Part shown: piece by piece, positions 342-38,873 of the stretch
How the letters are laid out: each line of letters starts with the position of its first letter
How positions within the stretch are numbered: position 1 is the first letter of the stretch
DNA from: a plasmid
DNA length: 64,000 nucleotides
Sequence record: NZ_CP033968.1
Reading direction: 5' to 3' (one strand)
The notes under the pieces: model-generated
The model's database searches: none
Told to the model about the DNA's origin: nothing
What the model saw: the letters and a program-made list of their open reading frames with translations, nothing else
Translations under genes and position numbers: made by a program

Positions 342-1931
342 ATGCCATCCACGCCCGTCACCGTTACCGCCGCCGAGCTGCAACTGTTGCGAGACGCCGA
401 GCGCGAGCTCAAGGCAATACTCGCGGAACGCGAGGCAATCAAGGGCGAACTGCGTGTGATGACGGTCCAGCGAGACCTGCTCTTGGAACAGCTCAAGGCG
501 TTTCAGCGTAAGCTGTTCGCCGCAAAGAGCGAGGCGCGAGGCTCGGAGCAGAAGGACTTGTTCCTCAATGAGGCCGAGGCCTTGGCGACGGCGGCCGCGC
601 AGCCGGCGCAGGAAGAAGAAGGTACGCCCGAGACCGAAGTGGCCGGACACAAACGCAAGAAGCGCGGCCGCAAGCCGCTCGACCCGGCGCTGCCCCGTGT
701 CGAGGTTCGTCACGAACTACCCGAATCGGAACGCGTCTGCCCCCTCGATGGCCAGGCTCTGGTCGAGATTGGCGTCGAGGTCAGCGAACAGCTCGACATC
801 GTGCCGCAGCAGGTCCGCGTGATCCAGCACCAGCGGGTCAAGTACGCCTGCCCATGCTGCGACGGCGGCATCAAGACGACGCCGGCACCGGCGCGCATTA
901 TTCCCAAGGGACTCCTTACCGAATCGGCGCTGGCCTGGTGCATCACCTCGAAGTATCAGGATGGCCTGCCGCTGTACCGCCAGGCAGCGCTGCTGCATCG
1001 CTTCGGCGGGGACCTCTCTCGCGGCACCCTGGCCGCAAGCATAGTGCGAGTAGGCCAGGCGGTGCAGCCAATCATCAACCTGCTGCGTGACCATCTGCTG
1101 GAAGCAGACGTCGTGTACGGTGACGAGACAACGGTACAGGTGCTCAAGGAGCCCGGCAGGCCTGCCCAGAGAAAGAGCTTCCTATGGGCGCAGATGAATG
1201 GCACAGGGCCGCCGGTACGGTTGTTTGCCTATAGCCCGACACGCGAGACAAAGCAGGCTACGGCTCTCTATGCCGGCATCAAGCCTGGGGCGGTGTTGAT
1301 GACCGACGGCTATGCACCATACGACGACGTCGCAAACACCTATCAGTTGGTGCATCTCGGATGCTGGGCACACGCGCGCCGCTACCTGGTCGAGGCGGAG
1401 CAAGCCTTGCCCAAGGACAAGCGCCCCGACCACCCGGTCACCGGATTCCTGCAGCGCATCGGCAAGCTGTTTGCCATCGAAAGCCACACGCTCAAGATGA
1501 AGCCGGAACAACGGCAGCAGGTTCGCGCCGAACAAAGCCAGCCGCTGCTGGCCGAGATCGAAACGATGCTGCTGCAACATCTGCATACCGTGCTGCCGCA
1601 AAGCCTGTTCGGCAAGGCGCTGCACTACCTGCATGGGCAGTGGCCAAAGCTCGTGCGCTACATCGAGAACGGAACCTGGCCGATCTCGAACAATCCCTGC
1701 GAGAACGCGATTAGGCCATTCGTGATCGGACGGAGAAACTTCCTCTTCTGCGACACCGTGGCCGGTGCCAACGCTAGCGCAAGTCTTTACTCGCTGGTGG
1801 AAACCTGCAAGGCCAACGACGTCGATCCGTATCAGTATCTCGTTGCCTTGTTCAAGGCGTTGCCACACGCACAGACCGCCGACGACTACGAGGCTCTGCT
1901 GCCCTGGAGGCTCAAGCCCTCAACCGTCTAG
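342..1931 (+). CDS. tnpC: IS66-family transposase TnpC/Orf3
   Basis: 529 aa. N-terminal coiled-coil/leucine zipper, Cys cluster (CPLDGQ...CPCCDGG), central DDE-type region (YGDETTVQVL, MTDGYAPY, GCWAHARRY) and C-terminal IS66 domain. Confidence 0.9.
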   Translation: MPSTPVTVTAAELQLLRDAERELKAILAEREAIKGELRVMTVQRDLLLEQLKAFQRKLFAAKSEARGSEQKDLFLNEAEALATAAAQPAQEEEGTPETEVAGHKRKKRGRKPLDPALPRVEVRHELPESERVCPLDGQALVEIGVEVSEQLDIVPQQVRVIQHQRVKYACPCCDGGIKTTPAPARIIPKGLLTESALAWCITSKYQDGLPLYRQAALLHRFGGDLSRGTLAASIVRVGQAVQPIINLLRDHLLEADVVYGDETTVQVLKEPGRPAQRKSFLWAQMNGTGPPVRLFAYSPTRETKQATALYAGIKPGAVLMTDGYAPYDDVANTYQLVHLGCWAHARRYLVEAEQALPKDKRPDHPVTGFLQRIGKLFAIESHTLKMKPEQRQQVRAEQSQPLLAEIETMLLQHLHTVLPQSLFGKALHYLHGQWPKLVRYIENGTWPISNNPCENAIRPFVIGRRNFLFCDTVAGANASASLYSLVETCKANDVDPYQYLVALFKALPHAQTADDYEALLPWRLKPSTV

Positions 1932-1982
1932 CGGATACCGCCGGCGGCCGCAAGGGGCGCCCTTAAAAGACCGCTTACGGAC

Positions 1983-2624
1983 GTGTTCGGCGTCGAGCCG
2001 CCTTCCGACGAATGGCGTGCAGAGGCGTGGCGAGACTACCCTGCCCCGATCATCCGCGCCGGCGACCACGGCCAACGGGAATGCGTGCTGGCAGGTTTTG
2101 GGATGGTGCCCAAAGCGGAGATAAAGCGGCGCAATGAGGAGACGATGCAACGGACTGGCGCTCCCCCAAAGGTGCGGGACTACGACACCATGAACGCCCG
2201 CTTGGAAACCATTGGCAAGCTCCAGTCGTTTGCAAAGTACTGGCGTGAATGCCGGCTCGCGCTTGTGGGGGCCACCGCTGTGTATGAGCCCTGCTGGGAG
2301 ACAGGCAAGGCCGTGCGGTGGCGTATCGGGCTACCTGATGGCGAGCCCTTCGCCATTGCCGGCTTGTGGCGCGATTGGCCGGACGGCTCGGCCACCTTCA
2401 CGATGCCAACGGTTGCGGCCGAAACCCATGCTCTCATGCGGCGCATGCACGCGCCAGGCAAAGAGAAACGCAGCGTAGTGATCTTGCCTCGCGACGAGTG
2501 GGATGATTGGTTGAACTGCCGCGATCCGGAACTCGCCCGCAGCTTCCTGCGGCTCTATCCGGCTGATGCCATGGTGGCCGAGGCAGCACCGGCACCACCG
2601 CGCAAGAAAGCCGTCGAGGCCTAG
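1983..2624 (+). pseudogene. SRAP (SOS-response-associated peptidase, YedK/DUF159) gene, 5'-truncated by the IS66 insertion
   Basis: AIAGLWRDW, TFTMPT and RMHAPGKEKRSVVILP regions align to SRAP family. The ORF begins with GTG 3 nt after the IS right end and lacks the invariant N-terminal MCGR (catalytic Cys2). Confidence 0.55.
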
Positions 2625-3082
2625 AGCGTGGGCCACTCGATTTTCTCTTGGGGCCCAGTCTCGTCCTCCCAGGAGATCTTCACCTGGAACTTCCGTTCCG
2701 CGAGCCCTAGATGGGCAGTTGCAATCAGGTCCACCCCGCACTGTGGTTCCAGCCGCTCCAGCGGGAACGTGCTGCGCACCTGTGACTCGACCAGAATGCT
2801 ATTGCCGTCCACGAACTCGATGCGTACGTTCCTGGCAGCGGCCCGTCCCCGGTTGAAGACCTTGAAGCGCCTGTCGTTGGAACCGCGCATGGCAAACGCA
2901 GTGCTCACGTCAGCCTTTTTCTCTGCCGCTGCTTCCGCCTCCTCTCTGGCCAGCAGACGCTCGTTCAGCAACTTCTGGCTCTGATTGACACCCTTCTGCC
3001 GATGGTTGAAGAGCACCGACGCGCCCGTACCGACAACGGAAACGATCAGCGCCGCGGCTGCGATGAAGTCGCTCTCAGTCAT
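2621..3082 (-). CDS. hypothetical membrane-anchored protein (N-terminal TM helix, coiled-coil, C-terminal beta-rich domain)
   Basis: 153 aa ORF. Hydrophobic N-terminus AAALIVSVVGTGASVLF. Start overlaps stop of upstream gene by 4 nt (operon). Confidence 0.5.
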   Translation of the reverse strand: MTESDFIAAAALIVSVVGTGASVLFNHRQKGVNQSQKLLNERLLAREEAEAAAEKKADVSTAFAMRGSNDRRFKVFNRGRAAARNVRIEFVDGNSILVESQVRSTFPLERLEPQCGVDLIATAHLGLAERKFQVKISWEDETGPQEKIEWPTL

Positions 3083-3387
3083 TTCAGCTTGAACCCCGAG
3101 CCCTTGAAGATGTTGGCGATCTCTTTCTTGATGTCAGCCACTACCTCTGCCTTCACCTCATCTACATGGGCTTGTATGTGAGCACCGTTCTCGCTCACCA
3201 GGTTCTCGCGGGAAATCTCACGTCCGCAACGCGTGCACTTCAGCAGCTCCGGAACTGGCGCGTTCTCGATGCTGGCGAAGTCAGTGCCGCCACATGTGGG
3301 GCACTGCAGTTGGACTGTCCTGTCGTACTTTCCCTCTTGCAACATTTCTGATCCCTCTGTGGTGTAGTTCATTGGCCAGCACGGCAC
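3079..3387 (-). CDS. hypothetical zinc-ribbon protein
   Basis: 102 aa. Two CxxC pairs (CPTCGG ... CTRCG); translationally coupled to 2621..3082. Confidence 0.5.
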   Translation of the reverse strand: MPCWPMNYTTEGSEMLQEGKYDRTVQLQCPTCGGTDFASIENAPVPELLKCTRCGREISRENLVSENGAHIQAHVDEVKAEVVADIKKEIANIFKGSGFKLK

Positions 3388-3548
3388 TAAACCACACCAG
3401 AAGGTACGTGGCAGGCACTTGCTCGACAGCTCCCTGTCCGAGCTGCTTCTGCTCGTTGGTCGACCTCGTCAGATTCACCCGCCTAGATCAAAGCCGGCAC
3501 GGCTCGTCAAGTGCCTGACGTTCCACATCGTCCTCCCCGGCGCGATCA

Positions 3549-3593
3549 GTTCTATATGGTATTGCGTCGTTTTTTCCACTCACACCATATAGA
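3549..3593. promoter_or_regulatory. Inverted repeat TTCTATATGGT-N23-ACCATATAGAA upstream of parA; candidate ParA/ParB autoregulatory operator or promoter
   Basis: Perfect 11-bp inverted arms about 85 bp upstream of the parA start. ParA has an N-terminal HTH extension typical of autoregulating type Ia ParA. Confidence 0.4.
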
Positions 3594-3677
3594 ACGTGAC
3601 GTTTTTCCTTGCCCCGCTACCATCTAGCCCCTAGAATCGGCTCAAACTGCATTTTGTGACGTTTCATACTTGGAGGG

Positions 3678-4808
3678 TTGCCTATGACCGCAACTGAGGT
3701 AGAAATCGATCCCTATCCCTATACGGACTTTGCGAGCCTGGCTTACCCGCCTCAGTTTGCTGCCGAAGCACTAGGGGTTAGCCCACAAACACTCAAGATC
3801 ATCGAACGCGACAACGACCTGAAGATTTCTCGGGTGCCCCGGGGGTCGGTCGAAGTCCGCAACTACTCGCTGAACGATATCTTTCAGATCGCGCGAATTC
3901 GGCGAGAGAGCAAGCACATCAAGGGCTTCACGCGGCCCATCACCATTTCGGTCTTCGTCCCGAAGGGCGGTACCGCGAAAACCACCACCACTTGCAACCT
4001 GGCCATTCAGTTTTCCCTGATGGGTTTGAAGGTGCTGGTGATCGACAATGATCAGCAAGCTGACGTGTCGACCATGATGGGCTATGACCCTGACCTTACG
4101 GCGGAAGAACTCATTGACATGGGTATCCCTGGCGAAAGGTCCATCAATGGGCACATCGGCAACCTGATGCGCGTTGGCAACTTCTACCAACCGATGTCGC
4201 TTGAAGAGGTCGTCAAGAAGCCCTTTGGTGAGCACGGCCCGCACCTGATCCCTGCGGAAGACTCGTTGGACGATATGGACTCTGCTCTGCGCAGCGCCAA
4301 TGGCTCGGACTTCCGCTATTCGCTGTTCTTCGAGCAGGCTCGCACTGGCGCCCTGCCCCACTGCAACTTGTCCAGCTATGACGTGATCATCATGGACAAC
4401 GCACCAGCGGGTTCGCTGCTTTCCCGAAACTCGATGGTGGCTGCGGACTTCCTGATCTGCCCGATTCGCATGGACAAGTTCTCATTCCGGGCACTCTCCC
4501 GTCTCGCGTTCCGGCTGGGTGAGTTCGCCAAGGATTTCAAGCGTGCGCCGGAGATTGTCGCGATCCCCACGATGTACGTTCGCAACCGGCCGCGCGTTGA
4601 ACGGAACATGGCCAGCCTCATCAGCCTGTTTCCCGGTAAGGTGACTGAGAGCCGCTTGTACCATTCGGAGGACTACTCCAAGAGCCTCGAGGACGGCGTT
4701 CCGCTGTCGCTCTGGCGCACCGGCACTGAAAATTCGCTCGGGGCAATGCGGGAAGTCTTCGAGGAGTTGGTCGCGCGCATCCGCGCAGTTACGGAGGTCG
4801 CTAAATGA
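3678..4808 (+). CDS. parA: Type Ia partition ATPase ParA (SopA/P1-ParA-like, N-terminal HTH extension)
   Basis: Deviant Walker A KGGTAKTTTT, ParA/MinD fold motifs (VLVIDNDQQAD, IIMDNAPAG). About 95-aa N-terminal extension with HTH-like FAAEALGVSPQTLKIIER. Confidence 0.85.
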   Translation: MPMTATEVEIDPYPYTDFASLAYPPQFAAEALGVSPQTLKIIERDNDLKISRVPRGSVEVRNYSLNDIFQIARIRRESKHIKGFTRPITISVFVPKGGTAKTTTTCNLAIQFSLMGLKVLVIDNDQQADVSTMMGYDPDLTAEELIDMGIPGERSINGHIGNLMRVGNFYQPMSLEEVVKKPFGEHGPHLIPAEDSLDDMDSALRSANGSDFRYSLFFEQARTGALPHCNLSSYDVIIMDNAPAGSLLSRNSMVAADFLICPIRMDKFSFRALSRLAFRLGEFAKDFKRAPEIVAIPTMYVRNRPRVERNMASLISLFPGKVTESRLYHSEDYSKSLEDGVPLSLWRTGTENSLGAMREVFEELVARIRAVTEVAK

Positions 4809-5914
4809 AACAATCCCGACGCCTCGGCCACGATGCAGCACGGCCGCCAGCCGCTGAGGCCCCGCCTCAGCATATCCAGGGGGTTGTCGTACCCGCGGAG
4901 ATGCCATCGGCCAATCTGAATCGGCCGATGTCGGAGATTCTGCGCGAGCAGGGAATCTTGGACGAAGATCCGCTTGCCCCCCCTCCCCCGCTGCAGAGCA
5001 CGCCGGCACCAGCTGCTGCACCCACTCCGAGTCCTTCGCCTCGGACAGCTCCCGTCTCTGGGGGTGCATCGGGGGTTTCGCCCCCCCCGAAGGCCCTTCA
5101 CATCCCCATTGGGTCCCAGCAGATGTTGCCGATGGACCAGATTGATGTCAGCCCACATCAGCCTCGGCTCGTCTTTGATCAAGACGCCCTTGCTTCGCTG
5201 ACAAGCACCATTGATCTCGTTGGGCTGAACAATCCGATTACCGTCCGACGCAAGGATGACGGTCGTTTTGAGCTCATTGCCGGCGAGCGTCGCTTCAGGG
5301 CGTTCCAACTGAAGCATGAGGCATATATTCCAGGCTTTGTCCGTGATCTTGGCGAGAAGGAAGCCGCGATCCTCGCAATGACGGACAACGATGCCCGGGA
5401 AGACCTGTCTGATTTCGAACGAGCCCTGGGCTATCAGCGATTGCTGAAGTTGGGGCATTGCCTCAACCAAATGGATATCTCCCGGTGTGTCGGTCGAAGC
5501 ATGGCCACCGTCAGTCGGTGCTTGGCTTACTTCAAGTTGCCGCAGGTAGTGATTGACATGCTCATGCAGAGGCCGGGGCTGATTGGCACTAAGGTTGTGG
5601 CTGATTTCGTCGCGTTCCATGAGCAGGGCTGCACCGAGCTGGTGATAGCGGCCGTTGTTAAGGTAGAAAAGGGCATGTCCCAGGAGAATGCCTTGAACTG
5701 GCTGAAGGCCGAGGCCCGGAAGCTCACGAACCCCGCGGCTGTCGTGATCCCACGCCGCCTGCAGATGTCCGGGAAACCGGTCGCTGACGCCAAGATCGAC
5801 GGGCGGAACCTCATTCTGAAGTGTCCGAAAGACGTCAATCCGGAGCTGCTACTCCGTACGATCGAGAAATTCCTCTCCGAGGCTGCAGCGGATGACCTTG
5901 ACGAGGCAGCATAG
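4805..5914 (+). CDS. parB: Partition protein ParB (ParB/Srx N-terminal domain)
   Basis: NPITVRRKDDGRFELIAGERRFRAF ParB box. Proline/alanine-rich N-terminal linker. Start overlaps parA stop (ATGA). Confidence 0.8.
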   Translation: MKQSRRLGHDAARPPAAEAPPQHIQGVVVPAEMPSANLNRPMSEILREQGILDEDPLAPPPPLQSTPAPAAAPTPSPSPRTAPVSGGASGVSPPPKALHIPIGSQQMLPMDQIDVSPHQPRLVFDQDALASLTSTIDLVGLNNPITVRRKDDGRFELIAGERRFRAFQLKHEAYIPGFVRDLGEKEAAILAMTDNDAREDLSDFERALGYQRLLKLGHCLNQMDISRCVGRSMATVSRCLAYFKLPQVVIDMLMQRPGLIGTKVVADFVAFHEQGCTELVIAAVVKVEKGMSQENALNWLKAEARKLTNPAAVVIPRRLQMSGKPVADAKIDGRNLILKCPKDVNPELLLRTIEKFLSEAAADDLDEAA

Positions 5915-5921
5915 CCGCCTC

Positions 5922-6826
5922 GATTTCACCGTGAAAAGCCCGCGCAAATGACGCGGGCTTTTTTTGCTCTCGACCAACTCTCCGGGCCGCCTAGAGCGCG
6001 AGAGCATTCACGGTATCCCAGCCCGGAACGGGCTTGGCCTGTCCTGCGGGCGCGGGGACTGCGCAGCGGCGAACTTACGACAACGCCCCCGGGGGGATTC
6101 GCGAGAGATTTCACCGTGAAAACTGGTTGGATCACCGCCAGCATTTCGCGCCCGAATTCTACCCAGCGTTTTCACGGTGAAATCTGCGCCGGCGCCAACT
6201 AGGGCGGGCGTTGCCCACGCGAATTGGGCCCACTTCAAATAACTCGCTCATGGGAGCGTCGCGGTGAAGATTCGCTGACAGGCCACCCCAGGTGCATACG
6301 CGCCCAGCGGCTAGATTTTCACGGTGAAAACTGCCACGGCGGCTACTCAGCTGGACGCTGCCAACGCCTTGTCCCGGAAGCGGAAATGCCGGCAGGCCTT
6401 TATGTGGATGCGCTCCTCGATCTTTCACGGTGAAAAGCGCCAGGTAGCCCTCGCTGCGCAATCGTCCAGCGGCGTGGTTTTCACGGTGAAATCCCAACGT
6501 TGATGGCCCCCTCAACGTCTCAAAAGCATCACCGTCCTTGGTGCGAGCGGAGCTTTTTCACCGTGAAAAGTCAATGGTCGCTCAATCGGCGCCTGCGGTC
6601 AGGAAGCAATTTCAAGCCTGCCGTCAGCATTCAGGGGCGAGGACGCACGAGCCTACGCCAGGCTGGTCTTCGACGAAACCGCTCGGCGCGTTGCATTCCC
6701 AGCCAAGGCGCGCTAGGAGAACGCCCAGTCTCTGCGCATTGCGCAGAGCGCACTACACATTGCGTACTCTGTGCGTCATCGCGTTTTCACCGCGAAACCA
6801 GCGGCATCACAATTTTCACGGTGAAA
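5922..6826. repeat. Array of ~9 copies of the 13-bp palindrome TTTCAC(C/G)GTGAAA downstream of parB; candidate parS centromere
   Basis: Copies at ~5924, 6108, 6169, 6316, 6422, 6478, 6556, 6783 (degenerate), 6813. Arms TTTCAC/GTGAAA are inverted repeats around a single central base. Resembles the chromosomal parS core (tGTTtCACGTGAAACa) with one inserted base. Overlapping ORFs are spurious. Confidence 0.6.
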
Positions 6827-7168
6827 ACGAACGCGATCGCCGGCCGGGCATTAGGAATACCATACAACTATTGCTACGTGTTATGTATCGCTATTGTGAG
6901 AAACGAGGAGCTAGTTGCAGTTCGCAAATGGCAGGAGAGCACACTGGGCACTTCTCCGAGCACTAGCCATTCGGTCAAACGTGATCATCGCGAGATTGGA
7001 TATCGGCTTGCCGAGGTTGCACTCAGCAGGACACCAAGAATGAACACCGGGAATTTCGAGAAAGAGGCGGGAGGTTTCGTGCCTCGCGTAGGGAAGCACT
7101 AGCAAGCTCGACGAGCTCAACCGCGCGCACTCTGGCGGCGGTCTTTCGCATGTATTGAGGAGGGCAGG

Positions 7169-8527
7169 TCAGGCAGCCTTCTGTTCCTCTGCCTGTCGCT
7201 TCACGTATTGGGCCAGTTCGACCTTCAGTGCCTTACGAGCCATGATTGCCGCCTCATCCGGCCTAGCCTTTACCTTCTGCCGCCGCGCAGCCATCTGGAA
7301 CGTAGTCTCCTTGTACAGTCCATCAAGGACAGCAAGTCGTTCGTCGTCCGTCATCGAGGCGAAGATAGCCAGACCTTCTTCGATATCGCGCTCAAGATTG
7401 CGCGCAAACTCGATCTCAGCGACCGGTACCATTGGCTTACTCGGGACTGCTTCGGCTGGGCTACCAAACGCCGCCTCGCGCTCCATTTCGCTAAGTGCCC
7501 AACCCTCTTTGATCGCGGTCATTAGGTAGGCACCAGGCGATTTCACCCCTCCAACTTTGACTCGGTACCTCACGAGCTCAATCGCCGCACGGATTCGCTC
7601 ATCCGTGTTCACTTCGCGATTGCTGATGATCTCATTGATCTGCCTGGTGCTCAGCCCAAAGCCCTTAACGAGAGTCTCATACAGATCCTTCAGCTCATGT
7701 GGTTGCGCAAAGTCCAGAACGAGCTTGCCCTCTGCGTTGTCCCTAAGCTTGAATCGAATCGCCGCAACGCGTCGCGAACCCTGCGCGGTCTTCGTTTCGT
7801 ACTCAACGTAGAGATCGGTCAGTTCATTGATTTGGGCAATGTTCTTATCCAGAACCAACCGCTTGAACTGCTTGTACTCGGTGAGTGATTTGACCGCGTC
7901 AGCATTGACCCACTTCCTGACCTCTTCGATCGGAAGCCAGTTCGTAGTCCCCATGAATCGAAGGGCGCCCAAACGCTCATACAGGATGTACGCGTACTGG
8001 CTGAGTGCCGCAGACATGCGCAAGGATAGATAGGTATAGCGCTTCGGATCTTTGAGTTGTCGACGGATCATCTCGTCGACCTTGAACACAACGCGCCCGC
8101 CTGCGATCCCTACAGAACCAAGAAGCGGCACTGACACCCATTGCGGGTCGCCGCCGCCCTTGCGCTCAACAGAGACTTGAACCGATGAGCTCTGGCACTC
8201 GCGCAGGGCCTTCTTGAGGTGCGCGACGTTGTTCGATGTTTCGAACTTAGCGAGCCATTTGAAGTAGCCGAGCTCGATATCGTAATGCTCAAGATCCGGG
8301 TTCTCCGACACCGTGAGCCACAACGCATTGATGGCCCGCCTTGCCACGAGGGACATAGGGGTGACGTCAATCAGAACATTGGTTTTGCGGTACCCAATGT
8401 CGCGCGTGGATTCAGTGATTGCGGTACTAGGCCCGAGCTCCTCGCGGACAGCGTTGAAGATATCGAAACCCAGCTGCTCCTGGATGTTTTTTGGGAGATT
8501 AGACATGGCAGAGTGCGCCCAATGCAC
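7169..8527 (-). CDS. repA: Plasmid replication initiator protein (RepA/TrfA-like, winged-helix)
   Basis: 452 aa, basic, between parS array and iteron/DnaA-box field. Sequence character consistent with RPA-family initiators; no closer family assignment possible without a search. Confidence 0.65.
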   Translation of the reverse strand: MHWAHSAMSNLPKNIQEQLGFDIFNAVREELGPSTAITESTRDIGYRKTNVLIDVTPMSLVARRAINALWLTVSENPDLEHYDIELGYFKWLAKFETSNNVAHLKKALRECQSSSVQVSVERKGGGDPQWVSVPLLGSVGIAGGRVVFKVDEMIRRQLKDPKRYTYLSLRMSAALSQYAYILYERLGALRFMGTTNWLPIEEVRKWVNADAVKSLTEYKQFKRLVLDKNIAQINELTDLYVEYETKTAQGSRRVAAIRFKLRDNAEGKLVLDFAQPHELKDLYETLVKGFGLSTRQINEIISNREVNTDERIRAAIELVRYRVKVGGVKSPGAYLMTAIKEGWALSEMEREAAFGSPAEAVPSKPMVPVAEIEFARNLERDIEEGLAIFASMTDDERLAVLDGLYKETTFQMAARRQKVKARPDEAAIMARKALKVELAQYVKRQAEEQKAA

Positions 8528-8559
8528 TAAGAGACTGCCGTAATATCTCCGTAATGGTG

Positions 8560-9945
8560 TAATGAGTCAAGTATACGATTGCACCTTTGCGCAACACCGT
8601 TGCCAAGAGGCACCAATCAATGACACCGTCGAACCAACTGATGCCACCATGACTGAGCGCCACTCCCCGGAAACCTAGACTGGGCGCGCCTTTCCGGGAT
8701 ATACGCACATCAAGCCAACGGTTAACACCTTCCACCAATTCATTGCACCTTGGCACCAATGGATAGCACCGTAGGAAGCCAATTTCTTACACCTTTGCGG
8801 CCCAATGCGGTACACCAATCCCCCAACAGATATCACCTTGGCACCAACAGTTAACACTTTGCTGCTCGTAAGCCATTGAATTATTTAAGCAAAACGAGAC
8901 CCGTATACGTTGGTTGGTTTACGTAAACAAAGCTGCTAGCTCTCCGCAGAAAAATGCGGAACGTCAAAACCACCGGTACTTATCCACAGCCATCGGCACT
9001 TGCCGCTTCGTCACCGCGACCGCTATCGCAGTACGGTGCAATCTGTTGGACCGCAATGAGCTCCGCCACACAGAGATGCAATCAACTCGACGCAACCCTC
9101 CCTCTCTAAACCCCATGGTGCAATCAGTTGGTCCGCAATCTTCCATATCGGTATGGGTGCAATGTATTGGCCCGCAAAGCCCCAGGGGGAAAGGTGCAAT
9201 GTATTGGCCCGCAAAATCGGCGTTCACTTGCCGCTATGGTGCAACGTATTGGTCCGCAAGAGACTGGGCACATGGTGCAGTCAATTGGTCCGCAGAGTAC
9301 CTCTCAACGACATGGTGTAGTTTATTGGTCCGCAAACGGACTCTCTACCATGGTGCAATGAATTGGCCCGCAGGGGGCTAGAACCGATAGCGCAGTTCTT
9401 TAGTCCGCAGAAACCCTAGCGCGTCATGGGCCCGCTACCCCCAGGCAATATGGTGTATCTGATTGGTCCGCAACCGCACGAGTACCGGCTATGGTGCAGT
9501 CGATTGGTCCGCAACCATGGCGAATCAGCGGCGTTAGCAGCTCTGCGCAGGCTCAAACACGCGCAAGGTGGCATCCGTTGGTCCGCAAAATGTGAGGACA
9601 AATAAGCACTCGCCTCGAAAGGTGCAATGACTTGGTCCGCAAAGATTGGCCACTGATTCCAGCATCTCTTACAGCACCTGCACTGCGCAAAGGTGCAATG
9701 GTTTGGTCCGCAATTTCTCCCAGCGGGGTTCAACCGGCAAGGTTATGACAACAATTAGCGAGATCTAGCGATAGGAAGCACTCACTAAAGCTCCGCAAAT
9801 TGCGCCACGGTCCACCAAACCGTTACACCTTGCCCGCGGGAGCGGGCTTTGCGGTCCAAAACGCATCACCCTAGGTAGTGCTCCATGGGGCACCTCCGCA
9901 AACTTTTGCGGGTCTGCGGGCCAAATCGTTACACCTTTCACCGCT
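8560..9945. repeat. oriV-like iteron field: 12 direct copies of ~22-bp GGTGCAATnnnTTGGTCCGCAA plus at least 5 inverted/degenerate copies
   Basis: Direct copies at ~9115, 9154, 9193, 9237, 9273, 9313, 9351, 9451, 9492, 9567, 9620, 9690 (first seven at ~39-40-bp spacing). Inverted copies at ~9803, 9849, 9915 and degenerate inverted copies at 8560-8870. Immediately upstream of repA. Confidence 0.6.
8980..8988 (+). promoter_or_regulatory. Consensus DnaA box TTATCCACA next to an AT-richer stretch (8870-8940, candidate DNA unwinding element)
   Basis: Exact 9-mer match to the DnaA box consensus, located between repA and the iterons. Confidence 0.4.
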
Positions 9946-10051
9946 GCCGCGAGGCGTAGACAGCCTGGAGCATCAGTACGCGGGGAGGGCGAGTTCCGGA
10001 TCAGATCTTTGCTTGCCTGTCGGCTGAATGGAGGGGCGGAACACGTTTCTC

Positions 10052-10197
10052 GATCGTGCAATGCGCATTGCACCACCCGCCTTGTTCGGCAGCGTTCCTG
10101 CGGGTCTTACTGGCCGAAGCACTGCGCAATACGTAATGCGCCCTGGGCAGTGCTCAATACCCAATGCGCAATGCTCACTGCGCATTGGGTACTCATC
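10052..10197. promoter_or_regulatory. Cluster of (A)ATGCGCA(TT) palindromes: TGCAATGCGCATTGCA (perfect 16-bp) and ACCCAATGCGCA-N8-TGCGCATTGGGT
   Basis: Seen directly; lies between iterons and the DUF736 gene; candidate operator sites. Confidence 0.3.
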
Positions 10198-10433
10198 TCT
10201 GAACGCGCCGCCGTTTTCACTGTGAAAAGTGGCGCTACCACGGTATGCCAGCCCCGGAACTGTAATCAGTGACGGGGGCCATCCAAAGACGAGCGATCGC
10301 ACGCAAGACATGCAACTCCCAAGGACTCCTGCGCTAGGCGGCCGATACACGCTGTTGTCAGCCATATCGGAGTACCAGGGCAACCCGCAAGCTTGCCTCG
10401 GACATCCAACCTCAGAGCTTCCAGGAGAACCTC

Positions 10434-10919
10434 ATGTCAATCGCATTGATCCTCAAAGCCGGCGAAGGCTCCATCTTCCCGAACCACGCAAAGACGTCCG
10501 ACAAGGACCCGCTGTTCCTCGGGTGGATGGAGTTTCCCCTCGACGAACAGAAGAAGAACTCGCTCCGGCTCGATGTCGCTGTTTGGCGGAAAAATAACAG
10601 CGGCAAAGATTTCTACTCGCTGTCCATCGGCGGCATTCCTGCAACCCTCTTCAAGGAAGAGAAGCAGGACAGGCCGGAGAGCTCCCCTGACTATGCCGGC
10701 AGCTTTGGCTTCGGCCGAGAGATGCGAATCGCCGGCTGGCGCAAGAAAACGAAGGAGGGCGACAACCCTTACATCAGCATCTCAGTAGTGGAGAAGAAAG
10801 CCGCTGCGAACAGTGAGCGCGCGCAAACGCCGGCAGCCGCCCAGGAGCAAAAGGCTCCCCCCAGGCAACCGGCCCCGTCACAGGAAGCAGCAGGACATCC
10901 GGGATTTGACTTCATCTAA
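10434..10919 (+). CDS. DUF736-family protein (plasmid/ICE backbone protein commonly near rep genes)
   Basis: 161 aa; good RBS (CAGGAGAACCTC ATG); pattern ...GWMEF... DFYSLSI ... WRKKTKEGDNPYISISV recalled as DUF736-like. Confidence 0.5.
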   Translation: MSIALILKAGEGSIFPNHAKTSDKDPLFLGWMEFPLDEQKKNSLRLDVAVWRKNNSGKDFYSLSIGGIPATLFKEEKQDRPESSPDYAGSFGFGREMRIAGWRKKTKEGDNPYISISVVEKKAAANSERAQTPAAAQEQKAPPRQPAPSQEAAGHPGFDFI

Positions 10920-10927
10920 CCGCAACA

Positions 10928-10965
10928 TGCCCCCACGAGAGATTTCGTGGGGCTTTTTTTTGCCC
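10928..10965 (+). terminator. Rho-independent terminator after DUF736 gene
   Basis: Hairpin CCCCACGAGAGATTTCGTGGGG followed by T8. Confidence 0.55.
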
Positions 10966-11050
10966 CTTTTCCACGGATCGGGCGAGGCGACACGTCCCTA
11001 TAATCGCGCGTTCACTATATGAGGGCGGGCCAGAGGTCCGAGAGCGGACA

Positions 11051-13648
11051 GTGGAGGAGAAGAGACCATCACAAGGTACGGGCGGCCGATCGGCTCGCCG
11101 CCTTGCCATTGCTGCAGGCGTTCTGTCGAGCCTCTTGCTTACGAGCATCTCCATCCACGAAGTGATTGACTTCAGGCGACGGGAATACGCTGAAGCACGA
11201 GAGAGCCTGGCGGTCTTCTCATCCGCACTGACTCGACAGGCGGCTGAGATCCTGAGGAGCCAGAAGACCGTTGTTCGACAGGTAGCTCGCACTTTGAATG
11301 GCGACAGCAACGCTCTCAGCATTCAAGAACGGTTTGCAATCGCAAGGGCAACAACCGAGAACACCTGCGTTGCCCGACTCTTCCTATACACCTTGACTGG
11401 TGCACTTGAGCTCGATACTTCAGGCTCTCCTGAGCCACAAGCTCCTCTAGCGCCGAGCAAAGACCTCCTGACTCAAGCAGTCAGCTATATCGTTGATGGA
11501 CCAGTTCCGGGCCTGCCGTACCAAATCTCAATCTCTGAAGGCCTACTTGGCGGCAACGGCCAATACCGTTGGCTCGCAACATCCTGGATTGACTTCGCCC
11601 CCTTCGCGCAGACAGTGGCCGCGATCACACGCGATACCGGTTACCAGGTCGCACTTGCCACTGAAGAGGGTCGCATCCTCTATCGCTTTCCAGAGTCCGC
11701 TCGCTTTGATTCGCAGGAGATTCGCCAAGGAGCGTTCGACGCATGGGGTAAAGCCGCGAGCCACGCTCCGATTCGCGAGCTTCCCGCCGGCGCAGCCGCT
11801 GAGAGCGTCATAACACGGATCGAGGGCGCACCGCTTGCCTTACAGATCGCATTGCCGACGCAGACTGTGAACACGGCCTGGCAGCGCCGCGCATCGTACC
11901 TCGCGGTACTTTCAACGGCCGGCATAGGCCTGATCTGGCTTCTCATTGCCACAATCCTCCGCCAGGTTAAGCAAACAGAACGTGTCGCCGAGTCCGCGGA
12001 ACGCGGCGAAGCAATGTTCGTCGACGTCTTGTCGCGGCTACGTGAGGCCGTCATTGCTACCGACACAAAGGGCACGATTCGCTTTGCGAACTCGAATGCC
12101 TTTATTGCTCTAGCTGCCACCTCAACCCATCAACTGATTGGCCAGCAGATTCAGACCTTGCTCCCTCCTGAGGTATGGAAGGGCTCGCCTTTAGGCGCGG
12201 GCGGAAATCCACGCCAAGAGGCATCCCACGAGTGGGCGGGCTGCTTGCCGACCCTTGCGGGCTCTTCGTTCCATGCCGAAGTCCGCATCTGTGGCAACGG
12301 CCTCCACGGAACCGATGGTCTCGTCATTACAATTCATGACGCCAGCGAGAGAAAGGCCTACGAGGCTCGAGTTGTTGAGGCGGCCACCATCGATCCGGTC
12401 ACGAACGTCTCAAACATGCACGCGTTTCGCGACAGACTCGATCGACTATTCCTGTCCGAGAGCGATCGCGACCAATTCCACGCCGTTTTGGCGGTGCAGC
12501 TCTCCGCTCCTCAAGGGGCACCGCTTGATGACTCGATTTGCGCACTGGCGGCAGATCGATTGACCACGAGCATTCGCGATTCCGACTCAGTCGCTTCGGA
12601 GGGCAGCGGTCGCTTCTTTGTACTGGCAAGAAATGTGTCCGAGCCGATTGACGTTGCGATCATTGCGCGTCGGATAGCTGCATGCTATGAAGCGCCGCTT
12701 ACGCCAGGCGGAGAGACGCTGCGGCTTCGCGCACGGACAGGCATCGCGCTGTTCCCCGTCGATGCGGAAACCAGTGACGCCTTGGTCGCTTCGGCTAAGA
12801 AGGCCGCGGCAACAGCAAACGCCGAGCATTTTGTCTATGCGAATGAAGCTTGTTCACGGCAACTCGAAAGTTTGCGCGAGCAAGCCGATGCCCTGAGAAC
12901 GTCGTTCGGCGCCGACAACTTGAAGCTGAACTACGCCCCGATGGTCTGTCTGAAGAGTAACGTCATCGTCGGCGCTATCGTAACGCCACTGGTCAGCAGC
13001 AATGGGCGGTACATCCCACTCGCTCGTCTGAGCGCCATACTTGAAGAGACGCGCATCTCTGCCCTGGCCGACGAGTGCGTGCTGAGATCGTTGCTCGCAG
13101 ATCTTCGCGCCTGCCAAGCTATTCCCGCCCCACGCTTGCTGATCGTGCCTGTCCACCGCGATAGCTTCACGAGGCCCGGATTTCTCAACACATTGCGAGA
13201 AGCGGTCGACGCTCTTCCGACGAAATGGGCGCTCGGCGTCAGCATTCTGGAACCCGTTGAATCAGAACACTGGACACAGGCCACGGTAGCGATCAGTGAT
13301 CTCGCGACGTTCGGCGTCCAGGTGTTCCTATCTGACTATGGCAACGGCTTAGCGTCATTGCCGCGCCTCATTACTTCCGGAGTACAAGGCGCAATCCTCG
13401 ACCGATCGCAAGCGCCGTTTATGGCTGGGCGGGACGATGCCTTCGCCTTCGTTACCGCCGCCACGGCCGTTGCGGCTAATCTCGGCATCAAGCTCGTGGC
13501 CACGGGCGTCAAGGACGCTGAAGTCGCTTCGATGCTAGCAAAAATGGGAGTGTCGTACGCCTGCGGTCCCCTTTATGGGACCAGCTACACGGCACCAGTC
13601 CTACCCGAACCTGCGATTCGAGAGTCACAAACGACGAATGCGCGTTAG
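11051..13648 (+). CDS. Membrane sensor protein with periplasmic domain, PAS and degenerate GGDEF-EAL domains (probably catalytically inactive c-di-GMP sensor/receptor)
   Basis: 865 aa; two TM segments; GGDEF position reads SGRFF; EAL position reads YAP, but the EAL fold signature motifs are retained (SDYGNGLASL, ILDRS). GTG start; start uncertain. Confidence 0.6.
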   Translation: MEEKRPSQGTGGRSARRLAIAAGVLSSLLLTSISIHEVIDFRRREYAEARESLAVFSSALTRQAAEILRSQKTVVRQVARTLNGDSNALSIQERFAIARATTENTCVARLFLYTLTGALELDTSGSPEPQAPLAPSKDLLTQAVSYIVDGPVPGLPYQISISEGLLGGNGQYRWLATSWIDFAPFAQTVAAITRDTGYQVALATEEGRILYRFPESARFDSQEIRQGAFDAWGKAASHAPIRELPAGAAAESVITRIEGAPLALQIALPTQTVNTAWQRRASYLAVLSTAGIGLIWLLIATILRQVKQTERVAESAERGEAMFVDVLSRLREAVIATDTKGTIRFANSNAFIALAATSTHQLIGQQIQTLLPPEVWKGSPLGAGGNPRQEASHEWAGCLPTLAGSSFHAEVRICGNGLHGTDGLVITIHDASERKAYEARVVEAATIDPVTNVSNMHAFRDRLDRLFLSESDRDQFHAVLAVQLSAPQGAPLDDSICALAADRLTTSIRDSDSVASEGSGRFFVLARNVSEPIDVAIIARRIAACYEAPLTPGGETLRLRARTGIALFPVDAETSDALVASAKKAAATANAEHFVYANEACSRQLESLREQADALRTSFGADNLKLNYAPMVCLKSNVIVGAIVTPLVSSNGRYIPLARLSAILEETRISALADECVLRSLLADLRACQAIPAPRLLIVPVHRDSFTRPGFLNTLREAVDALPTKWALGVSILEPVESEHWTQATVAISDLATFGVQVFLSDYGNGLASLPRLITSGVQGAILDRSQAPFMAGRDDAFAFVTAATAVAANLGIKLVATGVKDAEVASMLAKMGVSYACGPLYGTSYTAPVLPEPAIRESQTTNAR

Positions 13649-13701
13649 AATTCATAACACGTACTTGTAATAACGTTCGCAAACTTTCACCTCGAATCGA
13701 C

Positions 13702-16368
13702 ATGCCCAGTGTTTCCATGACAGAACGACACGGTCGAAGCAAAAAGGCCACCACGCGGGTCTTCTTGCCGCTCGTCTATGTTGGCGCCGTCATCGGCACA
13801 CTAGTGACTGGCCTCGTAGCGTACGAGATCAACGACAGTCGAACGCAGGCGCTGAATGATGCGTCCAGGGATCTAACTGTCCTTTCGTCTGCTTCTGCAG
13901 CACAGCTAAAGAGCTATCTGGACTCGATAGGTGAAGTGCTATCGGCGGCGGGCTTGGCGAGTCAATCACTGCTGACGGCGGGCCCTGGAGGCGCGGACAA
14001 CGCGCTCAGTCAAGTTCGTGCAGCCGCAGTCGGCACCGCAATCGAAGGTATCGTGGTTGTTGGGAAGGCCGGCGTCCCTGTGCTGCATACGTACGACGAT
14101 CCGGTTCCGGCCTCATTTCTGCCAGGTCAACTCGCCGTGCAGAAGCTTGAGTATCAGCGCACTGCGGGCACAGAGATCGTTGGCCCGATACTGTCAGACT
14201 CGGGCGACCGGGTTAAGGTGTATGCGGTAAAGCGAATCAACGACCAAACAGGCGCGTTTCTCGGGGCTGTACTGACACCCCTTGATATTTCCTCGATCGC
14301 ACTTGTTGGCAAGGAGGCTCTTCGCAAAGATGGTGTGACCGTCGCGGTGCTGGGAGCCGAGAGGGGAAACCTAGTTGCGCGCCTACCAGATCCCGGCGTC
14401 CTCCGTTACTTGAAACAGTACACGGAGACGGAGATCAGTCCGCAGATGGCGGGCAAGCAGTCGGGGGTGGCAGTTGGCGCGAGCGCTGTTGACGGCGTCC
14501 GACGGCTGATGGCATTCGAGCGTGTCAAGGACTACCCACTTTTGGTCGTTACCTCGATGGACGAGCAAGTCGTCAATAGCGAATGGCACGCTGATGCGAA
14601 GCGAATCATAGGTATCGGTTACGCTTCACTAAGCGTGATTGCACTACTCCTGGTTGTAATGCATCGCCAGCTGAGACAGCTCATGCACCGGACAGAAGCG
14701 ATAACCGAAAGTGAGCAGCGCTTCGACCGCGTTGTGCAGCGTCTTACCGATGGCCTCTATGTACGCGACAAGGCAGGGAAGCTTCTCGTGGCCAATCGGC
14801 AGTTCGCGACGTTCTTCGGCGCGTCTGACGAAAGGGCGCTGGTCGGTGCCGACCTGGCGACAATCAACCCCCAAGCTACTTCAAAGTCCATCGCACGCCT
14901 CAATGATCAGGTGTTCTCGTCGCGTGGGAAACCCTACATCCTTGAGTTGGAGACGGAAAGCCATGATGGACGAATGGTGCCGATGGAGTACACGCTGAGT
15001 GCCGTAGAGATTGGTGGCGTCGACTACATACTTGGCCAGATGCGCGACATCACTGCACGGCGCCAGTACGAGAGCCGACTGGTAAAGCAAGCGACGTTTG
15101 ACGAGATCACCGGTTTGCCGAATCGCCGGCTGTACATGGATCGACTCTCGAATGCCCTGCACCGTGCGAAGCGCGATGGTCGGAACGTGGCCGTAATGTT
15201 CGTTGACCTCGACCATTTCAAGAGAGTGAACGACACGCTGGGCCACCGCACCGGCGACCAGCTCCTCGTTGCCGCGGCCGAGCGGCTTACGTCCCTTGTG
15301 CGCGATGGCGATACGATTGCCCGCTTCGGGGGCGATGAGTTCGTTGTTTTGCTTGCAGAGGTCACCTCACCGCTGGAATGTCGTTTGCTCGCTGAGCGCA
15401 TCGTCGAGGAGTTCCGGACGCCGTTCGAGCTGGCAGGCCGGCGGGTCTCTGTGACAGCGTCGGTTGGTGTAGCCGTAGCTCCGGGGGATGGAGCCGAGCC
15501 AGATCTGCTGCTGCAGCACGCTGATACCGCAATGTACGAGGCGAAATCTGGCGGCAGGAGCGGTTTCCGGTTCTTCAACAATGAGATGAACGTACGCGTT
15601 CACGAGATGCTGCAGATTGACGGTGAAATTCGATTCGCACTGGAGCGCAATGAGATGCGCGTCTTGTACCAGCCGATCGTTGATCCTATTGCCCGCAAAG
15701 TTGTTAAGGCAGAGGCTCTTGCGCGATGGGAGTCCACGCGTCTCGGGTCCGTGTCTCCCGACAAATTCATTCCTGCGGCCGAAGAGAACGGCACGATCGC
15801 GCAAATCGGTGATTGGGTCTTGTCCGAGGCTTGCAGGACTGCCGCCTTATGGGCCAGGGACTTGCCTGAGCCGATCGCCGTCAGCGTGAACGTCAGCGCA
15901 AAGCAGTTCAACGATCCGAGATTTGTCGACAGCGTCTTCTCGGCACTTGATGAATCCGGGCTTCCAGCTCACCTGTTGGAGTTGGAGCTCACGGAACGTA
16001 TTCTGATCTCAGACGATGAGACCGCATTCGAAACGATCGCTGCGCTGCGAGAGATGGGTGTCGGCCTGTCGCTGGACGATTTTGGCACTGGCTACTCGTC
16101 ACTGAGTTACTTGACCAGATTCCCTCTGAACACTATCAAGATCGATCGAGCGTTCGTCAGTGGCCTGGCGGAAGATTCGCAGACTCAGAACCTGACAAAG
16201 GCGATCATCGCTCTGGCAAAGAGCCTGGACCTTCAGCTAGTTGCCGAGGGCGTCGAGACGGCCGACCAAGCAAGAGTTCTGATCGCCTACGGGTGTGATC
16301 TCCAGCAAGGTTATCTCTATGGGCGACCGGCAGAGCCGTCGGCAATCCTGAATCCGAGTTGGGGGTAA
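13702..16368 (+). CDS. Sensor diguanylate cyclase/phosphodiesterase (Cache-like periplasmic domain-TM-PAS-GGDEF-EAL)
   Basis: 888 aa; canonical RFGGDEFVVLL, EALARW, DDFGTGYSSLSYL and QGYLYGRP motifs. Confidence 0.8.
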   Translation: MPSVSMTERHGRSKKATTRVFLPLVYVGAVIGTLVTGLVAYEINDSRTQALNDASRDLTVLSSASAAQLKSYLDSIGEVLSAAGLASQSLLTAGPGGADNALSQVRAAAVGTAIEGIVVVGKAGVPVLHTYDDPVPASFLPGQLAVQKLEYQRTAGTEIVGPILSDSGDRVKVYAVKRINDQTGAFLGAVLTPLDISSIALVGKEALRKDGVTVAVLGAERGNLVARLPDPGVLRYLKQYTETEISPQMAGKQSGVAVGASAVDGVRRLMAFERVKDYPLLVVTSMDEQVVNSEWHADAKRIIGIGYASLSVIALLLVVMHRQLRQLMHRTEAITESEQRFDRVVQRLTDGLYVRDKAGKLLVANRQFATFFGASDERALVGADLATINPQATSKSIARLNDQVFSSRGKPYILELETESHDGRMVPMEYTLSAVEIGGVDYILGQMRDITARRQYESRLVKQATFDEITGLPNRRLYMDRLSNALHRAKRDGRNVAVMFVDLDHFKRVNDTLGHRTGDQLLVAAAERLTSLVRDGDTIARFGGDEFVVLLAEVTSPLECRLLAERIVEEFRTPFELAGRRVSVTASVGVAVAPGDGAEPDLLLQHADTAMYEAKSGGRSGFRFFNNEMNVRVHEMLQIDGEIRFALERNEMRVLYQPIVDPIARKVVKAEALARWESTRLGSVSPDKFIPAAEENGTIAQIGDWVLSEACRTAALWARDLPEPIAVSVNVSAKQFNDPRFVDSVFSALDESGLPAHLLELELTERILISDDETAFETIAALREMGVGLSLDDFGTGYSSLSYLTRFPLNTIKIDRAFVSGLAEDSQTQNLTKAIIALAKSLDLQLVAEGVETADQARVLIAYGCDLQQGYLYGRPAEPSAILNPSWG

Positions 16369-38514: not shown

Positions 38515-38850
38515 TCAAACCTGGCCTGTAGCCGCCGTTCTCAGGTAGCCGGCGTGATACGGGGCGCAGCCCATAATCCAGCGGCCTTCTAGTTCGAGGT
38601 CGTAGTCCGAGAACGACGTTCCCGACGCATTGCATCTGGCCTCGTTCTCGATGACGGCATCGAGGCGGACAATCTCTGTCTCATTAAGCGGTCGAATGCC
38701 TGTCTGGCGGGAGCTGCTAGCCCAAGCCTTGTACTCGGGAGTACCGTGCTCGTCGAGCCAATCTCGATGCTTGAACATCTCCCTGTCCGTGGTGAAGCCG
38801 AGGGCGACCGCTTCGTCGCTGACGCCTGAAATTGCTGCTTTTCCTGTCAT
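38515..38850 (-). CDS. hypothetical protein
   Basis: SD GAAGGAGTACGAA ATG; 111 aa. Confidence 0.45.
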   Translation of the reverse strand: MTGKAAISGVSDEAVALGFTTDREMFKHRDWLDEHGTPEYKAWASSSRQTGIRPLNETEIVRLDAVIENEARCNASGTSFSDYDLELEGRWIMGCAPYHAGYLRTAATGQV

Positions 38851-38873
38851 TTCGTACTCCTTCGAGTTGAACC

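Follow-up and report, generated by a model that had tools for sequence, protein, structure and literature searches.

A candidate odd-palindrome parS centromere beside parAB in a pMOL30-family megaplasmid

Introduction

Plasmid RK2 carries 12 OB sites, which are dispersed over the plasmid and serve mainly as long-range operators together with KorA and TrbA. The OB sequence is TTTTAGCGGCTAAAA, and KorB, which loads at OB and slides, is a ParB-family cytidine triphosphatase (CTPase; PMC11790492). A second site of this general kind is parS2 of Vibrio cholerae chromosome II (chrII), with the sequence NTTTACANTGTAAAN (PMC7022226); one copy, parS2-B, is situated in the chrII origin region, where spreading of ParB2 relieves an inhibition of replication (PMC3688505). 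Bsr parS sites, known from secondary replicons of the Burkholderiales, are defined as palindromes of 16 bp with CG as the central dinucleotide (PMC5450999). Here, we describe ten TTTCAC-N-GTGAAA palindromes in a 64,000-nucleotide stretch of the plasmid record NZ_CP033968.1 (the window, to which positions refer unless another record is named). These palindromes very probably constitute the parS centromere of a pMOL30-family megaplasmid, at which the ParB of a type Ia ParABS system encoded by the same plasmid would load.

Number and layout of the palindromes

Exact copies of TTTCACSGTGAAA occur eight times in the window (at 5924, 6109, 6170, 6317, 6423, 6479, 6556 and 6814) and not once in 100 dinucleotide-preserving shuffles of it (mean 0.00). 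Allowing any central base and at most one mismatch adds 6785 (TTTCACCGCGAAA) and 10215 (TTTCACTGTGAAA), which gives ten matches against 0.11 expected, all inside 5924–10227 and none elsewhere in the window. The original prediction of nine clustered palindromes and one outlier is borne out by this count, as is its layout, with nine sites in the parB–repA spacer (5924–6826) and the tenth past the iterons. Inverted repeats beside a par operon, ten where 0–0.1 are expected, are what a centromere would present. The same note had identified the six-nucleotide arms as the inner arms of the canonical chromosomal parS, TGTTTCACGTGAAACA, and this also stands, with one metagenomic relative (L112, see below) keeping the full 8-nt canonical arms plus one central base.

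The spacer between the arms is always 1 nt, spacers of 0 and 2–7 nt giving no match in the window. The canonical 16-mer parS was not found in the window either, the nearest match having three mismatches; the even 16-bp palindrome with central CG, in which TGTTNCAC directly abuts GTGAAACA, would require the missing spacer-0 form. Relative to the canonical GTTTCAC arm, TTTCAC is identical and the preceding base mostly differs: over the 20 arms it is T in 13, A in five, C in one and G in one, so that T or A precedes 18 of them. The extended consensus is TTTTCAC-N-GTGAAAA. The sites are listed below with no strand assigned; EM10 is Cupriavidus sp. EM10, used here for the comparison of conservation.

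5924–5936, candidate parS site 1, TTTCACCGTGAAA; begins 10 bp past the parB stop
6109–6121, candidate parS site 2, TTTCACCGTGAAA; motif count, kept in EM10
6170–6182, candidate parS site 3, TTTCACGGTGAAA; motif count, kept in EM10
6317–6329, candidate parS site 4, TTTCACGGTGAAA; motif count, kept in EM10
6423–6435, candidate parS site 5, TTTCACGGTGAAA; aligned EM10 position without a site, beside a deletion
6479–6491, candidate parS site 6, TTTCACGGTGAAA; motif count, kept in EM10
6556–6568, candidate parS site 7, TTTCACCGTGAAA; degenerate in EM10
6785–6797, candidate parS site 8, degenerate, TTTCACCGCGAAA, one mismatch; EM10 counterpart is a perfect TTTCACGGTGAAA
6814–6826, candidate parS site 9, TTTCACGGTGAAA; motif count, kept in EM10
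10215–10227, candidate parS site 10 (the outlier), TTTCACTGTGAAA, 15-mer TTTTCACTGTGAAAA; relaxed motif count

Site 1 directly precedes a hairpin and T-run (~5938–5966), and both its position and this terminator context recur in EM10 and in plasmid p2 of Caballeronia grimmiae (L002). The one-mismatch variant of site 8 is also present in Caballeronia (L002 7762).

The complete pMOL30 of Cupriavidus metallidurans CH34 (233,720 bp) holds 11 sites, namely the ten of the window and one perfect TTTTCACCGTGAAAA at record position 38700, where ~0.005 distal copies would be expected from composition. The co-resident pMOL28 (171 kb) holds none at up to one mismatch. As far as it was counted, the 13-mer is therefore exclusive to its replicon, which had been put forward as a check; for the 6.9 Mb of CH34 chromosome and chromid, composition gives an estimate of ~0.05 chance copies.

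Recognition helix, arrays beside ParB relatives and conservation

In the protein-first search, ParB was compared by tblastn with PLSDB (290 records) and representatives were examined. Arrays of the 13-mer accompany ParB orthologues of 33–99% identity in Cupriavidus, Caballeronia, Pseudomonas, Stenotrophomonas and metagenomic plasmids, with 4–15 odd sites in each pMOL30-type locus. In five of them the array directly follows parB: EM10 has eight TTTCAC-N-GTGAAA sites, the T-centred outlier included; C. grimmiae p2 (ParB 52% identical) has seven exact sites and two with one mismatch; P. aeruginosa pNY11210-NR (L003; 43%) has four sites; a Stenotrophomonas plasmid (46%) has 15, nearly all A/T-centred, and a Pseudomonas sp. 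genome contig (45%) has 14. Two perfect 15-mers of L003 (1438–1450 and 1462–1474) fall within parB itself: they belong to the part that codes for the disordered linker and are translated as FHREK and FHREN, so that some of the putative centromere of that plasmid is inside the gene for its own binder.

The segment GRSMAT[VI]SRCLAYFKLP, which contains the recognition helix, is the same throughout the TTTCAC subclade of the window protein apart from one V/I change, and it is different in every locus with other arms. This co-variation of arm and helix is the strongest computational argument that ParB reads these sites: conserved across relatives, they vary together with their cognate ParB, as a centromere would. 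Position, co-variation and conservation together support the suggestion, made when the sequence was first read, that the palindromes are the cognate parS of the adjacent ParAB. The helix itself is GRSMATVSRCLAYF in the window ParB versus GKSRSHVANTLRLL in chromosomal ParB.

Relatives of ParB at 28–33% identity were scanned with a motif-blind palindrome finder. Their loci have other arms and, again, a single-base spacer; six of these seven loci were compared with 200 Markov shuffles each, and in every one of the six the copy number was above all shuffles.

P. syringae locus, ATGCAC-N-GTGCAT, motif-blind palindrome finder
IncP-7 pCAR1 and pND6-1, GGTGCTC-N-GAGCACC, 3–4 copies between parA and parB
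Mycetohabitans locus, GTCCAAA-N-TTTGGAC, motif-blind palindrome finder
Acinetobacter locus, GTAGCAA-N-TTGCTAC, motif-blind palindrome finder
Undibacterium locus, TATTCTA-N-TAGAATA, motif-blind palindrome finder
Azotobacter locus, GTTGCTT-N-AAGCAAC, motif-blind palindrome finder

The control set came from a ParB-profile scan of genome contigs with a generic GERR pattern, which returned mostly chromosomal ParB/Noc loci. Among the matches listed for these chromosomal-type loci (L016 and L018–L091), the even TT[TC]CACGTG[GA]AA site was found in 49 (relaxed count) and the odd, single-base-spaced (N1) TTTCAC site in none. A neighbour-joining tree of the ParB N-domain and helix–turn–helix (HTH) placed every locus with repeated N1 sites, whether TTTCAC-type or parAB-adjacent, in one clade apart from the chromosomal ParBs. 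Judged from these comparisons, the 1-nt spacer is the rule across the plasmid ParB clade of the window protein, a rule apparently undescribed in the literature searched, the scope of which did not extend to key subscription papers. The TTTCAC arm occurs in two separate subclades, which suggests that it is ancestral in this clade. The only spacer-0 copies seen within the plasmid clade are single even TTTTCACGTGAAAA sequences in L004 (10153) and L013 (12142), each ~280 bp from an odd-spaced outlier site.

A DNA-first scan of metagenomes for two sites 30–60 bp apart yielded 66 loci. Most of those with at least six sites carry this ParA/ParB (33–99% identity), the 161-residue open reading frame (ORF) described below, or both. 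Metagenomic locus L112 has 21 sites between 3173 and 7145, most of the form TGTTTCAC-W-GTGAAACA, i.e. the full canonical 16-mer with one central base added; its runs of 17-bp sites are spaced by ~108 bp. Arrays of AAATTTTCAC-S-GTGAAAATTT were found in L126, L131, L109 and L151, with ParA beside them in L126, L131 and L151 and a very divergent ParB_N protein next in L126. The L126 array (1253–5530) has a period of ~65 bp. L140, a fragment with no par genes, has a 54-bp tandem array at 726–1214 in which the central base is always A.

For footprinting, the parB–repA spacer was aligned with that of EM10, the par/rep region of which is ~90% identical overall. Identity is 84% in the site columns versus 48% in the remaining spacer (Fisher p = 5e-14). 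Valid 13-mers are retained at seven of the nine cluster sites; one site has no counterpart, beside a deletion, and one has decayed. The outlier is unchanged. However, its neighbourhood (10000–10440) is ~95% conserved as a block, so that the outlier is not singled out by conservation.

The partition operon

The operon preceding the cluster and its upstream repeat are as follows.

3684–4808, + strand, parA, 374-residue Walker-type ATPase with an N-terminal extension (type Ia-like); Pfam/NCBIfam
4805–5914, + strand, parB, 369 residues, CTPase-type N-domain (GERRFRA) and HTH; Pfam/NCBIfam/PDB
3549–3559 and 3585–3595, + strand, inverted repeat GTTCTATATGG / CCATATAGAAC, 11 bp; direct reading of the sequence

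ParA matches AAA_31 (1.8e-25) and CbiA in Pfam and the partition family RepA/ParA/SopA in NCBIfam, and its orthologues (52–99% identical) adjoin 13-mer arrays. ParB matches ParB_N (4e-19) and HTH_ParB (2e-5) in Pfam and scores 121 bits with TIGR00180 (cut-off 58); among PDB proteins it matches Noc/Spo0J at 1e-26 and KorB at 1.5e-9, and the Pfam scan gave no KorB domain. The GERR patch is invariant across the orthologue alignment (A1). The N-terminal peptide NLNRPMSEILREQG, conserved in orthologues, is probably the ParA-stimulating motif. A Walker ParA with an N-terminal extension, paired with a ParB having a CTPase N-domain and HTH, is the composition of a type Ia operon.

Residues 25–77 of ParA give weak matches to HTHs of the MerR/HspR type. 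A promoter-like site for parA is found at 3609–3637, and the inverted repeat directly upstream of it (3549–3595) is a likely operator for autoregulation by the HTH-bearing ParA N-terminus. The RefSeq parB of L001, L005 and L096 (CH34 pMOL30) is shortened to 260–263 residues from an internal start, and the EM10 parB has an in-frame stop within its Pro/Ala-rich linker.

Replication module, outlier and neighbours

Between and beyond the sites are three further features.

7169–8506, − strand, repA, Rep3-type (WH1/WH2) iteron-binding initiator; Pfam Rep3_N, Rep3_C
8980–9719, + strand, oriV core, DnaA box TTATCCACA and iterons; sequence reading, repeat family D1
10434–10919, + strand, conserved 161-residue ORF; homologues beside or inside arrays

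The repA gene, which is outside the partition system and has its stop at 7169 and a promoter-like site at 8570–8542, separates the cluster from the outlier. The DnaA box (8980–8988) is followed by 14 direct ~22-bp iterons (GGTGCAATnnATTGGTCCGCAA) at 9033–9719; the iterons and the palindromes are two separate repeat families. Inverted iteron-like copies occur both around the repA promoter and past the iteron array (8575–8860 and 9815–9940).

The outlier is ~3.4 kb from the cluster, past the iterons, and ends 207 bp upstream of the 161-residue ORF. It is a perfect site that puts a candidate parS on both flanks of repA/oriV, and A/T-centred copies such as this T-centred one are the norm in the Stenotrophomonas and Pseudomonas orthologue arrays. 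The promoter scan gave no consensus at it. The 161-residue ORF, for which neither Pfam nor NCBIfam gave a match, is the usual neighbour of the arrays: homologues (45–57% identity) are beside or inside them in L002, L004, L098, L100, L111, L115, L116, L123, L125, L157, L160 and L161, and in several Pseudomonas-type plasmids the ORF is embedded between sites. Its identification as a homologue of pCAR1 ParW was considered and rejected, no similarity having been detected.

In Caballeronia p2 and in the Stenotrophomonas plasmid, no repA intervenes between parAB, the sites and the 161-residue ORF. Short homologies with L002 bracket the pMOL30 rep module: window 6869–6894 matches L002 8005–8030, window 10345–10401 matches L002 8050–8106, and the CATTGCGCA array at window 10126–10182 matches L002 7561–7505 in inverted orientation. 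The outlier thus appears to be in a rearranged block, and its history is possibly accidental. The simple version of the idea that an ancestral array, once contiguous, ended in this site was rejected, as the breakpoints put it inside this block.

Short palindromic repeat arrays of the CATTGCGCA / TGCGCAATG type are present beside the candidate parS sites at 6728–6780 and 10058–10197, on both sides of the rep module, with a perfect 18-mer GTGCAATGCGCATTGCAC at ~10057; a homologous array is situated inside the Caballeronia p2 site cluster (L002 7505–7561). A conserved element, ATTGCTACGTGTTATGTA, is shared by window 6869–6894, L002 8005–8030 and CH34 pMOL30 (~38555–38575 of L096). In Caballeronia it is ~100 bp upstream of the 161-residue ORF, and in the window the rep module intervenes; the element possibly serves as a backbone promoter or operator.

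Host plasmid

The par/rep backbone of the window (~2001–14600) is 100% identical to CH34 pMOL30, positions 1–1979 are an IS66 element, and positions 40000–64000 are 100% identical to NZ_CP037902.1, a plasmid from another C. metallidurans strain. The accessory part (14600–64000) shows patchy collinearity with CH34 pMOL30. The window plasmid is a mosaic pMOL30-family megaplasmid, distinct from CH34 pMOL30 itself. The distal site of the latter (L096 38700–38712) is within a small membrane-protein ORF (38608–38865), 32 kb from the par locus, in a segment that is missing from the window's plasmid.

Proposed mechanism and alternatives

The computations made here concern the statistics and position of the sites, their conservation, their co-variation with ParB and the restriction of the spacing to one clade; from these we infer that ParB would bind the sites, load and slide in a CTP-dependent manner, be insulated from its host counterpart and possibly influence replication. 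A ParB dimer would place one HTH on each TTTCAC arm, leaving the single central base unread. Other ParB-family CTPases suggest, by analogy, that the sites are loading gates at which ParB-CTP clamps would close and from which they would slide onto flanking DNA; this standard sequence is proposed because ParB is closest to Noc/Spo0J and keeps both the GERR patch and the N-terminal peptide. The sliding clamps would build a single partition complex of ~4.5 kb which, because there are sites on both sides, would also cover repA and oriV. The conserved N-terminal peptide of ParB would stimulate ParA, which would segregate the complex over the nucleoid. The additional base in the spacer, with T/A instead of G before the arm, is predicted to deny the host chromosomal ParB full-affinity binding, and conversely a host chromosomal parS would be no full-affinity target for the plasmid ParB. 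Coupling of the origin to the partition complex by the outlier, which could bridge the two, is plausible, and parS2-B may be regarded as the best precedent for such a role.

Several points weigh against this assignment. Reports of binding, chromatin immunoprecipitation, stabilization or incompatibility for the window plasmid were not found in the literature searched. Exclusivity of the 13-mer is only partly supported, as the CH34 count covers pMOL30 and pMOL28. ParAB is missing from many of the two-site metagenomic loci, which are probably unrelated. No palindrome array was found within 6 kb on either side in the Pseudomonas sp. NPDC086251 contig (L012; ParB 47% identical), where the par locus may be an integrated or decaying copy; a repeat search of L014 found no sites either. 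Finally, parS-contact positions have changed. Aligned with the contact residues of Caulobacter ParB, in which R173 contacts G1 (PMC7383237), the window ParB keeps the equivalents of Q162, G170, S172 and G201; R173 is replaced by M and N178 by R, and the loop preceding the G201 region has three more residues than in chromosomal ParBs. With these contact residues changed, the reading head cannot be equated with that of chromosomal ParB. The change from R173 to M would fit the loss of G before the arm; in L112, whose sites do possess G1, residue 173 is K, which is suggestive only.

A different emphasis would make the sites mainly operators, with ParB acting as a KorB-like transcriptional repressor or silencer and partition being secondary; the outlier would then control the 161-residue ORF and EAL operon, and the cluster would control the promoter-like element at 6869–6894 or repA read-through. 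The geometry is indeed the same (TTTTAGC-S-GCTAAAA versus TTTTCAC-S-GTGAAAA; PMC11790492), in V. cholerae, ParB2 acts as a silencer of promoters in the vicinity of parS2-B (PMC3688505), and CH34 pMOL30 site 38700 is ~130 bp downstream of a promoter-like TTGACG-17-TAGCAT. The constancy of the 161-residue ORF as array neighbour, between the sites in several relatives, would also suit such control, but plasmids of the P. aeruginosa, L102 and L112 types have arrays without this ORF nearby. Nine of the ten sites are gathered in one non-coding spacer rather than spread across promoters, there is no promoter consensus at the outlier in the scan, and the window ParB lacks the KorB Pfam domains and is nearer to Spo0J/Noc. 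We regard a predominantly regulatory function as distinctly unlikely, bearing in mind that partition and regulation can coexist. Still less credible, and in our judgement very improbable, is recognition of the sites by something other than ParB (the 161-residue product, RepA or a host factor) in replication control or handcuffing instead of partition. The presence of sites on both flanks of the replication module and the co-occurrence of an ORF without known function with many arrays would agree with such a binder. However, the RepA iterons form their own 22-bp direct-repeat family, the arrays stay beside ParAB where Rep is missing or only 22–25% identical, they persist without the 161-residue ORF in L003, L102, L108 and L112, and their arm sequence follows the ParB recognition helix.

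With the sites taken as parS, the outlier might nevertheless have no special role, being the by-product of a rearrangement in which the repA–iteron module was inserted between the array and the 161-residue ORF, and a block consisting of the CATTGCGCA array and one site was carried along or duplicated. The uninterrupted order in Caballeronia p2 and the Stenotrophomonas plasmid, the three L002 matches that bracket the rep module and the lack of sites past rep in related plasmids with rep downstream all point this way. Against it, the outlier is a perfect 15-mer, unchanged in EM10, in a neighbourhood whose ~95% conservation points to constraint on the block; moreover, if the centromere assignment is right, a perfect site would load ParB whatever its history. 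We consider an accidental outlier to be a serious possibility, albeit not one that we favour.

We also propose, tentatively and as a rather unlikely generalization, that the extra base is the ancestral and defining trait of a large clade of plasmid ParBs, the original site of which would have been the chromosomal parS with 1 nt added, like the TGTTTCAC-N-GTGAAACA of L112, and that plasmid and host partition systems are insulated from one another primarily through spacing, not through half-site sequence. The clade sharing it may comprise the pMOL30 family, many Pseudomonas and Stenotrophomonas plasmids, the IncP-7 plasmids pCAR1/pND6 and Acinetobacter plasmids. If this were true, ParB clamp closure would be tuned to one half-site spacing and, as a further step, sites flanking oriV would couple the control of replication with partition in the manner of Vibrio chrII.

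Significance

The present assignment would give the pMOL30 family of heavy-metal-resistance megaplasmids a concrete centromere and, by extension, would assign parS in many environmental and clinical plasmids of Pseudomonas, Stenotrophomonas and Acinetobacter. It provides a predictive rule for the parS of this ParB clade (an odd palindrome with a 1-nt spacer beside parAB) and, in canonical arms with an extra base, a natural test case for ParB half-site spacing and for cross-talk between co-resident replicons. In practice, it could be of use for orthogonal ParB/parS labelling pairs, for incompatibility typing and for correcting the shortened parB annotation. Our searches returned nothing on these sites in the pMOL30 and IncP-7 literature and no mention of the 13-mer or its variants in the literature searched, which did not extend to key subscription papers, so that an earlier description is possible. 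Current understanding of partition is unchanged by the finding; this is a real and fairly ordinary feature.

Comparison with known ParB sites

A close match in form is the RK2/IncP-1 OB site (TTTAGCSGCTAAA), which like the window site is a 13-bp palindrome with 6-nt arms and a central S, and which shares its TTT...AAA ends and five of seven extended-arm positions. Unlike the dispersed OB sites, nine of the ten window sites form a single array beside parB, and the window ParB, with neither KorB nor KorB_C domains and much closer to Noc/Spo0J, does not belong to the KorB family with its dispersed promoter operators. In the V. cholerae parS2/ParB2 system the palindrome is odd as well and leaves its central base unspecified, and chrII is a secondary replicon derived from a plasmid, whose origin is of the iteron type (PMC7022226); however, the parS2 arm is TTTACA versus TTTCAC in the window, and the parS2 sites are scattered across a large part of chrII, whereas those of the window form a tight array.

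The canonical chromosomal parS (TGTTNCACGTGAAACA) of Spo0J/ParB has the same inner six nucleotides in each arm, and its binder is clearly homologous to the window ParB in N-domain and HTH. In contrast, every window copy has the extra central base and nearly all arms are preceded by T/A, and the odd form does not appear among the matches listed for chromosomal-type loci. The chromosomal likeness on which the original prediction drew is thus upheld for the arms, and fails for the reading head with its different helix. The Bsr parS sites share with those of the window the host order, the type of replicon, a T-rich 5' end and an arrangement in arrays close to parAB (PMC5450999), but the window palindrome is 13–15 bp with a single central base, not 16 bp with a central CG. 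The same prediction had called an odd-length centred parS unusual. This is only partly right: the 1-nt spacer appears clade-wide. Arms of 6–7 nt around one unpaired central base, with TTT...AAA ends, place the window sites with KorB OB (PMC11790492) and parS2 (PMC7022226), both of which are odd, so that the odd centred ParB site is a kind that is already known.

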